Assembly (NCBI GenBank): GCA_029856445.1
Contig: JAHQWY010000002.1
Coordinates: 1 to 37,499 of the forward strand
Source: Promethearchaeia archaeon
Lineage (GTDB): Archaea > Asgardarchaeota > Lokiarchaeia > Sigyniarchaeales > SOKP01
Direction: 5' to 3'
DNA length: 37,499 nt
The notes beneath the pieces are model-generated. The model was not told the origin of the DNA. It searched no databases and saw only the letters and a list, made by a program, of their open reading frames with translations. Both the position numbers and the translations under genes were made by a program. Below, piece by piece: positions 4,701 through 31,378 of this stretch; position 1 is the stretch's first letter; every line of letters starts with the position of its first letter.

Positions 4701-5030
4701 AATTATCAACTTCCAATTAAAACTTGTAAGAATTATATGAAAGGTTAATAAAAAATCTTTTTAACAAAAAAATCAACTAGTTCTAAATTAAGTTATTCAA
4801 TATTTCAGTATAAAAATCAATTTTAATATTATTTAATCTATTTAATAAAAAAAATCTTTAAAAAATAATACCTCGATAACTCATTTAATTATTAGAACTA
4901 TAACGGATTCTCCTTTTATTGATATAAATAAAATTATAAATTTGTATTTATAGTTATAATATATAAAAGCTTGAACATTTTCGAAAATTTAAAAAATATA
5001 TTAATGTGAAATGCAAAAAGAGGACCTGTG

Positions 5031-6701
5031 ATGGCTGAAGAATATGACTTTCTTTTTAAATCGATTGTTGTAGGAGATGGAGGTGTTGGAAAAACAGCTC
5101 TCACACTTCGATTCTCAAAAGGTTTTTTCACTGAAGATTATAAAATGACGATTGGCGTTGATTTTCATGTAAAAACGATTAATATTGATTCAAATGAGGG
5201 ACCAATTCGTGCGAAGCTCCAAATATGGGATACAGGGGGACAGGAACGTTTTAGTTCAATAAGACCAATGTATTACAGAGGGTCATTAGGAGCACTATTA
5301 ATATTTGATTTAACAAATTCTGCTAGTTTCGAACATCTACCTGGATGGATTGAAGAGGTTAGAGCTAATATAAAAACCGAGATTCCATTCCTGTTAGTTG
5401 GGAATAAAAGTGACTTAGTTGATCAGAGGGCAGTATCATTGAATGAAATCAACACATTTACCCGAGATTTTAATTTGTATTATATGGAAACTTCTGCAAA
5501 AACAGGAGAGGGTGTTGGTGATTGTTTCTATATTCTTGCTTGCTTAATGATAGGATCTGGGGTTCCAGATCAACTCATTTCCAATAATGTAGTATTTAGT
5601 CCTGGATTTATACCGATTACAAGTTCTGAAACCATTTTACCCACCTCAGATCAGGTACAGCCTGATTTTGAATTTTCTGCACCACCCGTTCCAGAACCTA
5701 CGACTATAACTACACAAGAGCCGGTGTCTTCATTTGAACCAGAACCAGAATTCGAATATGAGGCACCACCCGTTCCAGAACCTGCATCTATGAAGGTCTC
5801 TGCTGCCAGCCCTTCTTTTGAGACAGAATTTGAGCCAGAAATACCAATTCCTGAATCCAAGATAGGAATTCAAGATGGTGGTTCGACAGATTTTGAATTT
5901 AAAACACCTGAAGAAATACTAGCTGAAGAAAAAACAGAAGAAGATAAAAGTTCAATATCTTTGCAAAGATCCCCCATAACACCAAAGGAAGAAATTTACA
6001 AACCTAAACCTGTTCCCTTTTCTTCAAAAATTCCCACTCCAGCACCGCCACCAGAAGGATTTCAACCTACTCAAACATCTGTAGAAAAATCTAATATACC
6101 ACCTACTCCTTTTCTTACATCACAAGGAGAACCTCAAACAAAATCTAATTCTTTAATGGATTATATGCCTGAACCAATTTATTCAAAAAAAGACCTGAAA
6201 AAACTAGAAAAACAGAAAAAGAAAGAAGAAAAGGAGAAGAAAATCCAAGAAGAAAAAGAAAAACAACAACAATTAATAGAAGATATGAAAAAAGCAAAAA
6301 AGGAAAAGAAAGAGAAATCTAAAAAAGAAAAGAAAGCGAAGGAAGAAATTCCAGTTACTCGTCCAGTTTCACCTAGTACTTCAATAAATTCACCATCTAG
6401 CGCTCCAACTCTTTTTCAAACCTTAACGCAGAAAGAAGATGAAACTGCTAAAGCTCAATCATCTCATTTCGTTCCTTTCAGCGAAAAAAAAGAATCACAG
6501 GTTCAAGAAACCAGTAGATTAAGAATAATTCCAAATGCAGCTGATATTGAAAGTAAATCAAGTAGTTTTACACCAATCCAACCAACACCGCAAGGTGAAG
6601 CTTCTAAATCAGGAAGTAAAGAGCTAATAATTTGTAAAAATTGTGGTGCTATACTTTCTTCTGATTATGCTTTTTGTAACAAGTGTGGTACAAGTATATA
6701 A
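5031..6701 (+). CDS. Rab-like small GTPase with long low-complexity tail and C-terminal zinc ribbon
   Basis: GTPase motifs are G1 GDGGVGKT, switch I YKMTIGVDF, G3 WDTGGQE, G4 GNKSDL and G5 ETSAK. Rab-family-like motifs are IGVDF, KLQIW, RFSSIR, YYRGS and LIFDLT. The tail has Pro/Glu repeats and a K/E-rich block, and ends in CKNC-x10-CNKC. The ATG at 5031 directly follows the GTG at 5028. Confidence 0.9.
   Translation: MAEEYDFLFKSIVVGDGGVGKTALTLRFSKGFFTEDYKMTIGVDFHVKTINIDSNEGPIRAKLQIWDTGGQERFSSIRPMYYRGSLGALLIFDLTNSASFEHLPGWIEEVRANIKTEIPFLLVGNKSDLVDQRAVSLNEINTFTRDFNLYYMETSAKTGEGVGDCFYILACLMIGSGVPDQLISNNVVFSPGFIPITSSETILPTSDQVQPDFEFSAPPVPEPTTITTQEPVSSFEPEPEFEYEAPPVPEPASMKVSAASPSFETEFEPEIPIPESKIGIQDGGSTDFEFKTPEEILAEEKTEEDKSSISLQRSPITPKEEIYKPKPVPFSSKIPTPAPPPEGFQPTQTSVEKSNIPPTPFLTSQGEPQTKSNSLMDYMPEPIYSKKDLKKLEKQKKKEEKEKKIQEEKEKQQQLIEDMKKAKKEKKEKSKKEKKAKEEIPVTRPVSPSTSINSPSSAPTLFQTLTQKEDETAKAQSSHFVPFSEKKESQVQETSRLRIIPNAADIESKSSSFTPIQPTPQGEASKSGSKELIICKNCGAILSSDYAFCNKCGTSI
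5679..5783 (+). repeat. In-frame direct repeat inside the GTPase tail (21-nt identical copies at 5679-5699 and 5763-5783)
   Basis: gcaccacccgttccagaacct occurs twice, encoding APPVPEP within FEFSAPPVPEP and FEYEAPPVPEP. Confidence 0.9.
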
Positions 6702-27293: not shown

Positions 27294-28127
27294 TCACTCT
27301 ATAGGAAAAAAATCGGGTAAATCTCCTGGCACTTTCAAATTCCATTTAGGTCTTCTTTTTTGAAGAAAAGACATTATTCCTTCTCTTGCATCTGATTGTT
27401 TACCTGTCCAGCGTGTATATCTATGATTTATACTCTCTACCTTATCTATATCTGTCTCGTAAAGGAATTGATAAAGCATTCTCTTTGTAAGAGCTGTACT
27501 TACAGGCGCACTTAATAATATTTCATCAGCTATTTCTCGGGCGGTATCCATTAATTTATCATCAGGTACTACTCGACTAACAAGGCCATACTCTAAAGAT
27601 TCTTGAGCATTTAAGATTCTGCCAGTATACATTAATTCCGCAGCACGACTAATTCCAATGATACGAGGTAAAATCCAGGGACATGAAATCTCAGGTAAAT
27701 AACCACGTCGATTGAATACAATTCCTATACGTGCACTCTCGGAAGCAATTCGTATATCAAAGGGTAAAATAAATGTGACACCGATCCCAACAGTAGGACC
27801 ATTAATTGCAACTATTACAGGCTTCATCAACAAAAAGTACCGTCTAGTAATACTTCCTTCACGTCTGGCCCTTTCATCTATCTCACGTGGCCTATTTGAA
27901 CCATCAAATGTCGTAGCACCACCCGATAGATCAGCACCAGCACAAAATCCTCTTCCTGCACCAGTTAATATTGTAACCCGTAAATTAGGATCATTTTCAA
28001 CTTTCATAAGTGCATCCCAAACCTCCATCCCCATTTGCCAAGTATAAGCGTTCAAACGTTCTGGTCTGTTTAAAGTGATTGTTGCAACCTCATCTGAGGC
28101 TTGGAAAATTATTTGTTCATATTCCAT
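27294..28127 (-). CDS. Enoyl-CoA hydratase/isomerase (crotonase superfamily)
   Basis: ITLNRPERLNA and GAGRGFCAGADL (oxyanion-hole motif), with the typical ~270-aa length. Confidence 0.85.
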   Translation of the reverse strand: MEYEQIIFQASDEVATITLNRPERLNAYTWQMGMEVWDALMKVENDPNLRVTILTGAGRGFCAGADLSGGATTFDGSNRPREIDERARREGSITRRYFLLMKPVIVAINGPTVGIGVTFILPFDIRIASESARIGIVFNRRGYLPEISCPWILPRIIGISRAAELMYTGRILNAQESLEYGLVSRVVPDDKLMDTAREIADEILLSAPVSTALTKRMLYQFLYETDIDKVESINHRYTRWTGKQSDAREGIMSFLQKRRPKWNLKVPGDLPDFFPIE

Positions 28128-28395: not shown

Positions 28396-28499
28396 CGGGC
28401 TATAGGGGAATTGAACCCCTGACCTTCCTTTTCATGAGAGGATCCCTCATAAAGTTCAGGTTAAAAGCCTGTTGCGCTACCTGCCTGCGCCAATAGCCC
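28396..28499 (-). tRNA. tRNA-Lys (anticodon UUU) with an intron of about 30 nt, apparently 3' of the anticodon arm
   Basis: Minus-strand fold: acceptor GGGCTAT/ATAGCCC, D-stem GCGC/GCGC, anticodon arm ACAGG-CTTTTAA-CCTGA (anticodon at 28465-28463), variable loop AGGTC, T-arm AGGGG-TTCAATT-CCCCT, discriminator G. About 30 extra nt (roughly 28426-28455) contain the hairpin ATGAGGG/CCTCTCAT. No encoded CCA. Confidence 0.8.
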
Positions 28500-29722: not shown

Positions 29723-29812
29723 GCCTCTGTGGCTTAGTGGTATAGCATCAGATTCGTATTCAAATTTAGAAGAAATATCTGAAGGTCGGGGGTTCAATTC
29801 CCCCCAGAGGCT
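29723..29812 (+). tRNA. tRNA-Thr (anticodon CGU) with an 18-nt intron at the canonical 37/38 position
   Basis: Acceptor GCCTCTG/CAGAGGC, anticodon stem TCAGA/TCTGA, loop TTCGTA-[intron 29759-29776]-A (anticodon at 29755-29757), variable loop AGGTC, T-arm GGGGG-TTCAATT-CCCCC, discriminator T. Confidence 0.85.
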
Positions 29813-29816
29813 CTAA

Positions 29817-30830
29817 TTACACTTCCTCAGTAAAAACAAATTGCTTTATTATTTGTAAAGCAAGCATTTTGAATGCATCATTAATGTTTTCCCCTGTTTT
29901 GGCTGAGGTTTCGATATAAGAAAGATTTAACTTTTTTGCTAATGCCTCGCCTGCTTCAGTTGAAACGACCCTATCTTCTGTCAAGTCTATTTTATTTCCA
30001 ACTAAAATTAAGGAAATATTCGGTGAAACCTCTTTTATTTCATTATACCAATTTTCTAAATTATCAAGAGTATCTTTACGGGTTACGTCATAAACCAAAA
30101 TACCTGCTTCAGCATTAGATAAATAAGATTGTCTTACACGCTTAAATTGGGCTTGTCCTGCTAAATCCCAGAGAACAAAGCGGACTTTTGATTCTAAACC
30201 ATCGAAATCACATTCCTTTTTCATTATGGATGTTCCAATTGTGGATTTATAATCAGTATGAAATGAGTCTTCTACAAAACGGTGAACCATACTTGTTTTC
30301 CCTACTCCCCCCTCCCCCCCCAAAATTAGTTTGTATGCATATTCCCCTGATTTTATCTTAATTTTTTGAAGTGTATCCACTTTTCTTTCAATATTTTGAA
30401 CATCTTTGTCTGAAATAAGTTTTGGAATTACAGGACTTACTGTTCTTCCATCAAAAATTCGAGCGATCTTCTCTGCAGCTAAGTAAGCATATGGAAAGAT
30501 TGGATCGACCATAGCAATCGACTCTAATACGGTTACAAAGATGGCTTCTGGTCCTGCTTCACAAAAAATAATACGTTGTTCTTCTGTATCGAAAGTACCA
30601 GTCCCAAAAGCACCTGAACTAAATTCTTCAGTGATTCTAGTTAGAACGGGTTCTACTAAAGCACTAACACCTCCAATTACATCTTCTTTTACTTCTGCTT
30701 CTGATTCTCCTTTTAATGCAGCCATAACTAAACCTTCTCTGTTTACAATAATAGCAGCAATCAAATTTTTCCCAACTTCCTGCCTATACCATTTCAGCAT
30801 TGCTTCTAGTTTATCGCGATCAACTGACAT
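29817..30830 (-). CDS. Roadblock/LC7 domain - Ras/Rab-like small GTPase fusion protein
   Basis: The N-terminal ~135 aa resemble Roadblock/LC7/MglB (LIAAIIVNREGLVMAAL...GGVSALVEP...IIFCEAGPEAIFVTVLE). The C-terminal GTPase has G1 GGEGGVGKTS, switch I KSTIG, G3 WDLAGQ, G4 GNKIDL and G5 ETSAK. Confidence 0.85.
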   Translation of the reverse strand: MSVDRDKLEAMLKWYRQEVGKNLIAAIIVNREGLVMAALKGESEAEVKEDVIGGVSALVEPVLTRITEEFSSGAFGTGTFDTEEQRIIFCEAGPEAIFVTVLESIAMVDPIFPYAYLAAEKIARIFDGRTVSPVIPKLISDKDVQNIERKVDTLQKIKIKSGEYAYKLILGGEGGVGKTSMVHRFVEDSFHTDYKSTIGTSIMKKECDFDGLESKVRFVLWDLAGQAQFKRVRQSYLSNAEAGILVYDVTRKDTLDNLENWYNEIKEVSPNISLILVGNKIDLTEDRVVSTEAGEALAKKLNLSYIETSAKTGENINDAFKMLALQIIKQFVFTEEV

Positions 30831-31127
30831 AAAATTATAAACCTCAAGAATTTATTTTTTAATGCATTAAAAATTAACTAAAATTTAATATTTAAATAAT
30901 AGGTTTATCTTAAAAATTTATAGAAAAAGATAATCCTTCACCTTATTAATATTAAGAGATTTTGTTTAAAAAATAAATCAAATACCAAGTGAAATTCGAA
31001 CTTAGTATCTAAAATAATATTTTACTACAATGAAGGAAAAAGGTTTTAAAAATTGTATACATTATCTAAATTCAATATCGTCTATACTATTTATTCTTCG
31101 GAAAAGAAGTTAATAAATCTCTATAAA

Positions 31128-31244
31128 GCAGGAGTTGCCAAGCCTGGTCTAAGCTTAGTTTATTGAATTGAGCAAGCGATTAACGGCGCTAGACTGAGGT
31201 TCTAGTGACATAGGTCTTCGTGGGTTCGAATCCCACCTCCTGCA
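31128..31244 (+). tRNA. tRNA-Leu (anticodon GAG), class II, with an intron of about 31 nt in the D-arm region
   Basis: Acceptor GCAGGAG/CTCCTGC, D-arm GCC AAGCCTGGTCTAAG ... GGC interrupted by about 31 nt (roughly 31154-31184), anticodon arm CTAGA-CTGAGGT-TCTAG (anticodon at 31196-31198), long variable arm with GAC/GTC stem, T-arm GTGGG-TTCGAAT-CCCAC, discriminator A. Confidence 0.85.
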
Positions 31245-31312
31245 ATTTCAAACCTTAATAATACTATATTCTTCGAAGTTTATCTAATCAAGGAATATCA
31301 AAATATTATATA

Positions 31313-31356
31313 AGATCTAAAAAACATTGAAGAATTTGTTCTTAAGTTTTAGATCT
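31313..31356. repeat. 10-bp perfect inverted repeat (agatctaaaa / ttttagatct, 24-nt spacer) between convergent tRNA-Leu and polC
   Basis: Arms at 31313-31322 and 31347-31356. Located 69 nt after the tRNA end and 23 nt after the DP2 stop. It could act as a hairpin at a bidirectional termination zone. Confidence 0.5.
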
Positions 31357-31378
31357 ATCGATTTAGGAAATCAGCAAA

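Follow-up and report, generated by a model that had tools for sequence, protein, structure and literature searches.

A conserved Roadblock-GTPase fusion protein with a Rab/Ras-type G domain at a syntenic locus of Loki-type Asgard archaea

The RG gene is a single intact reading frame

We analyzed a 37,499-nucleotide stretch of DNA from the Promethearchaeia archaeon assembly GCA_029856445.1 (contig JAHQWY010000002.1, positions 1 to 37,499, forward strand; here called the window) and within it a gene encoding a Roadblock domain followed by a small GTPase (G) domain in one polypeptide, an arrangement abbreviated RG. The window has about 30% G+C and encodes archaeal PolD DP1/DP2, Cbf5, and an unsplit RpoB. 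Its close homologs carry Promethearchaeota/Lokiarchaeota MAG labels, and these features together point to an Asgard archaeon of the Loki type. The ORF list and translation place the RG gene on the minus strand as a single open reading frame (ORF) that starts with ATG, with a Shine-Dalgarno-like GAGGT about 10 nucleotides upstream. The features of the gene are as follows.

29817..30830, minus strand: whole RG gene, 337 amino acids (aa) plus stop codon (ORF list and translation; intact at about 58 loci)
30447..30830, minus strand: Roadblock/LC7-type domain, residues 1 to 128 (family profile against the PDB, AlphaFold2, Foldseek)
30585..30653, minus strand: most conserved Roadblock patch, residues 60 to 82 including FGTGTFDT, covering the second half of helix a2, strand b3, and the loop between them (column conservation)
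30345..30446, minus strand: inter-domain linker, residues 129 to 162 (conservation; AlphaFold2 secondary structure)
29838..30344, minus strand: Rab/Ras-like G domain, residues 163 to 331 (Pfam Ras, phmmer against the PDB, Foldseek)
29820..29837, minus strand: short C-terminal tail ending in FVFTEEV (cysteine and hydrophobicity check)

A preliminary description of this DNA had proposed that both domains belong to a single polypeptide. A scan of species-representative genomes with the single protein as query, whose reach is close relatives, returned 60 loci, and about 58 of these carry either an ortholog (70 to 94% identity) or the nearest paralog (61 to 64%) as an uninterrupted ORF of 337 to 340 aa. 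The closed chromosomes CP070831 and CP070805 are among the genomes with an intact single ORF. Further, the best protein clusters in a large protein collection, at least 120 in number, are all 337 to 340 aa long, with 82 to 98% identity. A split gene was looked for in these independent assemblies; about 58 of them carry one ORF, and the proposed fusion therefore stands.

Adjacent Roadblock and GTPase genes might in principle have been fused through an assembly or frameshift error in this metagenome-assembled genome (MAG), and the P-loop codons do contain a G8-A-G6 homopolymer of a kind prone to sequencing error. However, the same ORF recurs across the independent assemblies, the two closed chromosomes included, and the homopolymer lies inside the G domain, away from the domain junction. 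Together with the full-length protein clusters, the intact assemblies exclude an assembly artifact or split gene, and we regard the probability of this explanation as negligible. The G8-A-G6 run itself, at 30307..30321, encodes the P-loop glycines. A run of eight G occurs in only 1 of the 39 orthologs scored for P-loop codons, that of the window genome, with runs of 2 to 7 in the rest; programmed slippage at this site was ruled out on these grounds. The run is a codon quirk of this lineage rather than a slippery site kept across orthologs.

The N-terminal half is a divergent Roadblock domain

On the single sequence, Pfam Robl_LC7 (PF03259) scores 14.7 bits, or 16.3 bits when the N-terminal 162 aa are searched alone, against a cut-off of 23. 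It is the sole N-terminal Pfam match, in the same register, in all five full or partial RG paralogs of the genome (E values of 0.005 to 0.12). Because the single-sequence score falls below threshold, we used a profile approach. An exhaustive phmmer search with residues 1 to 160 against 1.84 billion representatives gave 113 clusters (at 50% identity), and 45 related N-domains among these clusters made up the N-domain profile. Searched against the PDB, the profile matches the Roadblock/LC7 domain protein 9jue_D (MK-D1 Roadblock3; E value of 5.7e-14), 7yh1_D (2.2e-10), the Robl_LC7 protein 7f8m_A (Thorarchaeota Roadblock; 5.7e-10), CvnB5 (3leq; 1.2e-9), and MglB (3e-4). It also recovers the canonical Roadblock proteins of the same genome, with E values of 2e-18 to 1e-4.

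An AlphaFold2 (AF2) model of residues 1 to 138 has a predicted local distance difference test (pLDDT) score of 88.4 and a predicted template modeling (pTM) score of 0.83, and shows the topology alpha-beta-beta-alpha-beta-beta-beta-alpha with a five-stranded sheet. The elements are a1 (residues 5 to 19), b1 (23 to 30), b2 (35 to 40), a2 (about 50 to 69), b3 (77 to 81), b4 (85 to 91), b5 (96 to 103), and a3 (about 109 to 127). In a Foldseek search with this model, the best 50 matches are all Roadblock-fold chains or entries containing them (probability of 1.00), led by the MK-D1 Roadblock3 dimer, MglB (template modeling [TM] score of 0.6 to 0.73), MglC, the Thorarchaeota Roadblock, and LAMTOR2/p14. 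The N-terminal half is thus a genuine, divergent, three-helix Roadblock domain of the MglB type, as the preliminary description had surmised, with the family profile, the modeled fold, and the Foldseek matches in agreement. Within the N-domain subfamily, almost every member of at least 300 aa has a P-loop 30 to 60 residues downstream of the domain, so that the RG-type Roadblock subtype is essentially always fused to a GTPase.

The C-terminal half is a complete Rab/Ras-type G domain

All four motifs named in the preliminary description are present in the translation: G1 (GGEGGVGKTS, residues 171 to 180), G3 (WDLAGQ, 221 to 226, including the catalytic Gln226), G4 (GNKIDL, 278 to 283), and G5 (ETSAK, 307 to 311). 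Switch I contains YKSTIGT, with Thr197, and reads DSF(H/Q)TDYKSTIGTSIM. The G1 to G5 motifs, Thr197, and Gln226 are retained across 54 orthologs, and none of the variants listed for these orthologs has an arginine in switch I.

Pfam Ras (PF00071) matches residues 167 to 328 with an E value of 1.6e-51, and NCBIfam small_GTP matches with 5.6e-27; the weaker Pfam matches of the domain are Arf (4.8e-13) and Gtr1_RagA (2.2e-8, covering part of the domain). In a phmmer search of the PDB, the best match is the Thorarchaeota Rab 7ezb (2.3e-44), followed by Rab26, Sec4, Rab11, and Rab8; apart from the Thorarchaeota Rab, the best 60 sequence matches are all Rab, Ypt, or Sec4 proteins. A full-length AF2 model built on a 56-sequence alignment has a pLDDT of 85.2 and a pTM of 0.82, and the best 50 Foldseek matches of its G domain are all Rabs (TM scores of 0.87 to 0.95). 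The domain superimposes on Rab5c, Rab1, Rab8, and Rab6 with a root-mean-square deviation (RMSD) of 1.1 to 1.4 Å over about 165 columns; TM scores for Rab5, Rab1, and Rab8 are 0.93 to 0.95. There is no switch II insert, since 163 of 164 residues align to Rab5c (1huq; TM score of 0.94) with an RMSD of 1.1 Å. The G domain is a complete Rab/Ras-type domain, neither MglA-like nor Rag-like. The earlier proposal of a Rab-like rather than MglA-like domain is therefore upheld, both by the gap between the Ras and Gtr1_RagA scores and by the arginine-free switch I.

The linker between the two domains opens with a near-invariant GRxVSPVIPK, continues through a variable stretch (residues 138 to 153), and ends in a predicted extra beta-strand (154 to 159). 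The C-terminal tail has no prenylation motif: the only cysteines of the protein are residues 90 and 207, and the listed tail variants of the orthologs also lack cysteine. The 337-aa protein is also free of transmembrane segments and of hydrophobic stretches that reach 15 residues. From these sequence features, the protein is a soluble, presumably GTPase-activating protein (GAP)-dependent switch of the Rab/Ras type without a prenyl anchor.

Both halves are under strong purifying selection

Measured as mean per-position identity to the window protein across the 54 orthologs, the Roadblock domain scores 0.82 and the G domain 0.84, and strong purifying selection is shown for both halves alike. Column conservation, a separate measure that gives the share of the most common residue at each alignment position in the same orthologs, is 0.96 in the C-terminal half of a2, 0.95 in the loop after it, and 1.00 in strand b3, where five of five residues are invariant. 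Helix a3 (0.97) and the post-a3 segment GRxVSPVIPK (residues 128 to 137; 0.97) compare with 0.94 for the P-loop, and the linker stretch 138 to 153 has 0.59. The face formed by the C-terminal half of a2 and b3 is the canonical Roadblock dimer interface (Tran et al. 2024, Fig. 7, PMC10933270), as also known from established Roadblock structures. In the aligned sequences the peak of Roadblock conservation coincides with this interface, an observation that is new here.

The Roadblock domain might have supplied an arginine finger in the manner of the NPRL2/FLCN longin GAPs, a reading that was rejected: no Roadblock arginine is conserved in the paralog family alignment, in which only G33, K121, and P136 reach at least 90% conservation.

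At the most distant locus of the same family, RG is 63.5% identical to the window protein, compared with 62% for DP2, 62% for Cbf5, and 85% for RpoB. The corresponding values in the sister family are 51% for RG, 49% for DP2, 57% for Cbf5, and 73% for RpoB. Judged by these identities, RG evolves about as slowly as DP2 and Cbf5.

RG proteins form one clade within the genome

The genome of the window (3.8 Mb in 505 contigs) has 62 small-GTPase matches, of which six have the RG architecture. The five paralogs of the window gene are the following.

C304: 52% identical, with a 65-aa tail
C126:1199..4443, minus strand: tandem pair, 37 to 38% identical, about 530 aa each
C223 and C163: both cut at contig ends

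In both members of the tandem pair, the G domain is followed by a conserved extension of about 190 aa, and the family's genomes mostly share this pair. C163 at first sight has a G domain only, an appearance explained by its truncation at the contig end.

When 54 G domains of the genome were placed in a maximum-likelihood tree, the six RG G domains formed one clade with a Shimodaira-Hasegawa-like approximate likelihood ratio test (SH-aLRT) support of 93, and clustering as tight was never obtained when labels were shuffled. This topology, also new here, suggests a single ancestral fusion followed by duplication within the GTPase family of this genome. The same genome gives 17 canonical Robl_LC7 matches, most of them free-standing ORFs (96 to 161 aa), and has proteins of the Rag-like order, G domain then Roadblock (GR; C291, C260, and C437). 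Both domain orders thus coexist, as GR and RG proteins are found in one genome.

Two neighboring GTPases of about 340 to 385 aa (C99:985..4185, minus strand) have a non-Roadblock N-terminal domain of about 170 aa that has no Pfam match and is probably longin-like. Their G domains fall in a larger clade (SH-aLRT of 92) that includes the RG clade.

Beyond this genome, the distribution of RG rests on single-sequence or small-profile searches. In a sample of 201 genomes of the phylum, single-sequence N-domain matches occur in 46, and 44 of these belong to the order of the window. A second Asgard family (f18) has proteins of 428 to 436 aa with the layout X-R-G-X. Two of these (L066 670..1980 and L067 673..1959, both minus strand) are extended at the N terminus by a further module of about 70 aa, which in one protein contains a CxxC, and at the C terminus by a helical tail of some 45 aa.

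The RG gene has a fixed place between PolD and the Cbf5/RpoB cluster

A common gene order is kept in about 50 loci: DP1/DP2 (divergent), RG, tRNA-Thr (convergent), a ThiL-like gene, Cbf5, an MTS methyltransferase, and RpoB. Parts of the PolD/RG/Cbf5/RpoB order persist in the sister family, and the species representatives recovered have one intact copy of the RG ortholog each.

The tRNA-Thr(CGU) gene (29723..29813, plus strand, 91 nucleotides) lies between RG and the ThiL-like gene, converges on RG, and ends 3 nucleotides from its stop codon. On the other side, toward DP2, is an AT-rich spacer of 548 bp (30831..31378); in L001, L003, L004, and a handful of further loci it is about as short. An operon partner is ruled out by the convergent tRNA gene and this spacer, and from its surroundings the RG gene appears to be monocistronic. 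Across about 55 syntenic loci, no Roadblock, longin, GAP, or guanine nucleotide exchange factor (GEF) gene was found as a conserved neighbor.

Other features of the locus were recorded as well. The tRNA-Thr(CGU) exceeds the length of a plain tRNA and probably contains an intron. Most orthologous loci have an RG-DP2 spacer of about 1.7 to 1.9 kb, probably with an extra gene or element, and within the spacer of the window Rfam matches only a T-arm/acceptor-like fragment (31219..31236). An enoyl-CoA hydratase gene (27294..28127, minus strand) has been inserted between the ThiL-like gene and Cbf5, next to tRNA-Lys (28396..28499); among the roughly 55 syntenic loci, only the window and L027 (94% identical) have it at that position. 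The window encodes a second small GTPase (5028..6701, plus strand), in which an N-terminal Ras-family G domain (PF00071, 1.1e-52) is followed by about 350 aa of low complexity rich in Pro, Glu, and Lys and by a zinc-ribbon-like C-terminal end with CxxC...CxxC. The taxon labels of L003, L005, L007, L010, L019, L024, L026, and L045 look unreliable. MAGs named as Hod-, Thor-, Hermod-, and Odinarchaeota have RpoB proteins 95 to 98% identical to that of this Lokiarchaeial window and are fully syntenic with it, and L045, labeled "Candidatus Nanopelagicaceae bacterium," has the same archaeal gene order and is probably a misbinned contig.

A Roadblock-dimerized GTPase switch is the favored model

We consider it fairly probable that RG is a Roadblock-dimerized, domain-permuted GTPase switch that is Rag-like in its logic and depends on an external GAP. 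The protein is a soluble two-domain switch in which some 35 linker residues connect the N-terminal Roadblock domain with a Rab/Ras-like GTPase predicted to be catalytically competent. Roadblock domains generally dimerize, and that of RG would do so via its a2/b3 face, either with itself or with an RG paralog. By analogy with Rag/Gtr dimers, such a dimer would set two G domains on one platform, giving a two-headed GTPase. With Gln226 and Thr197 present, the protein would be expected to cycle as a classical switch; as the MglA-type arginine is missing from switch I, it would need an external GAP. How tightly the gene is conserved, and its constant position between PolD and the Cbf5/RpoB cluster, point to a core cellular role, and the lack of a lipid anchor speaks against a membrane cycle of the prenylated Rab kind. 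The full-length pTM of 0.82 implies, at the level of the model, a defined packing of the two domains.

Several points weigh against this model. The AF2 models are of monomers, and dimerization is read from conservation and from the general behavior of Roadblock domains. The high pTM of the modeled chain could equally mean an intramolecular contact between the Roadblock and G domains, which would favor regulation in cis. No partner, GAP, or GEF gene is linked to the monocistronic RG locus. Finally, synteny within one archaeal order may merely reflect slow genome rearrangement.

Regulation in cis, the self-regulating option raised in the preliminary description, would have the Roadblock domain bind the switch regions of the G domain in the same chain. 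It would then serve as a built-in GAP of the MglB kind or as a GEF-like allosteric element, and the protein would be an autonomous timer. MglB, the nearest characterized Roadblock relative after the Asgard proteins, is indeed a small-GTPase GAP; helix a3 and the post-a3 GRxVSPVIPK are as conserved as the P-loop; the pTM of the two-domain chain suggests fixed inter-domain packing; and a C-terminal helix of Myxococcus xanthus MglB is described as contacting MglA allosterically (PMC6785124). However, MglB acts as a dimer on one MglA and uses the switch I arginine of MglA itself, a residue missing from the variants listed for the RG orthologs (compare the legend of Suppl. Fig. 6 in Tran et al. 2024, PMC10933270). 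The Roadblock domain offers no arginine invariant across the paralog family, and the variable 16-residue stretch of the linker speaks for a flexible tether. On the conservation pattern, homodimerization through the Roadblock domain seems to fit better than a cis GAP, and we consider regulation in cis unlikely. A heterotypic platform, in which the Roadblock domain pairs with a free Roadblock or longin protein or with a GR-type GTPase and so recruits the Rab-like G domain into a Ragulator-like assembly, has candidate partners at hand in the 17 canonical Robl_LC7 matches and the GR-order proteins of the genome; Roadblock and longin proteins are described as typically both homo- and heterodimerizing (PMC3747258, PMC10933270). 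Yet no Roadblock or longin gene is linked to RG at any of the syntenic loci, and the RG N-domains form a subfamily of their own, with E values of 1e-30 to 1e-53 against 1e-4 to 1e-18 for free Roadblock proteins under the same profile. Such a platform strikes us as distinctly unlikely.

Under the model of a dimerized, GAP-dependent switch, a further proposal concerns the role of the ortholog, which we call RG1. It would be a core, near-universal housekeeping switch of Lokiarchaeales rather than a membrane-traffic-like paralog, domain-permuted, Roadblock-dimerized, and of an origin independent of Rags, and its linkage to PolD, Cbf5, and RpoB would reflect a coupling of growth state to replication or to ribosome/RNA biogenesis. 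We put this forward as speculative and improbable; if true, RG1 would be a prokaryotic functional analogue of Rag-type growth signaling. The debate on the origin of eukaryotic membrane and growth signaling gives a central place to the small GTPases of Asgard archaea and to their Roadblock/longin partners, and to our knowledge almost none of these has an assigned function. As a single intact copy, constrained like a replicative polymerase and recognizable by synteny, the RG ortholog is a sensible first target for biochemistry. Such work would address how a Rab-like switch is controlled by a covalently attached Roadblock domain.

RG compared with known systems

Like the Rag/Gtr GTPases (RagA to RagD, Gtr1/2) of the Ragulator/EGO systems, the window protein covalently links a small GTPase to a Roadblock dimerization platform, and LAMTOR2/p14, a Ragulator subunit, is among the structural matches of its N-domain. 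The domain order differs: G domain then Roadblock in Rags, Roadblock then G domain here. The reversal noted in the preliminary description is therefore borne out by the domain positions, but the link it suggested to Rag/Ragulator ancestry finds no support in a G domain of the Rab/Ras type (Ras at 1.6e-51 versus Gtr1_RagA at 2.2e-8).

The MglA/MglB systems of Thermus thermophilus and Myxococcus xanthus likewise pair a three-helix Roadblock fold with a Ras-superfamily GTPase. There, however, two separate genes encode what is one ORF in the window, and MglA has its own switch I arginine and an expanded switch I, neither of which is found in the window protein, whose G domain is far nearer to Rabs.

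In sequence and fold, the G domain is closest to eukaryotic Rabs (Rab1, Rab5, Rab8, Sec4) and the Thorarchaeota Rab 7ezb, with which it shares the conserved DxxGQ glutamine and switch I threonine. Unlike Rabs, the window protein has a Ras-like P-loop (GxGGVGKT) and lacks a C-terminal hypervariable region and a cysteine prenylation motif; its N-terminal Roadblock domain is not known from any eukaryotic Rab. Published Asgard Rabs are also without a C-terminal cysteine prenylation motif (PMC10933270).

The closest systems are the RG proteins already described in the same phylum. Roadblock domains fused to Ras-like GTPases were reported for Lokiarchaeum (Klinger 2016, according to the summary by Dey et al. 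2016, PMC4917890). Tran et al. (2024, PMC10933270) counted 74 small GTPases in Promethearchaeum syntrophicum MK-D1, of which 26 also contain a Roadblock or longin domain, and named four RG proteins (WP_147664993.1, WP_162306515.1, WP_147663391.1, and WP_147662074.1; Fig. 1f and Suppl. Fig. 6). They aligned the RG G domains beside Ypt1/Rab1B, with a switch II insert in GR but not RG proteins and without the switch I arginine. The preliminary description had marked the fused order and its Rab-like G3 motif as worth a look; with Lokiarchaeum fusions reported in 2016 and the RG architecture cataloged in 2024, the suggestion of novelty falls. A literature search found no functional study of any RG protein.

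The window protein shares with the MK-D1 RG proteins and the Lokiarchaeum fusions the domain order within one polypeptide, a Rab/Ypt-like G domain, and the lack of a switch II insert, a switch I arginine, and a prenylation tail. It differs in coming from another species, an uncultured MAG of a sister family, at about 51% identity at the order level. WP_162306515.1 is probably the MK-D1 ortholog of the window gene: the two have a common context of switch II, G4, and G5 (FAKVRQTY, WYNE, LILVxNK, YLETSA), a comparison that serves as a lead only, as the text of Suppl. Fig. 6 is garbled by optical character recognition. Published accounts give the architecture and AF2 cartoons only, and not the near-universality, conservation level, or synteny of this ortholog. 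The window gene is thus a new, well-conserved member of a known architecture and adds no new design; the near-universal, highly conserved, and syntenic character of the RG ortholog within its order is a modest addition to what has been described.

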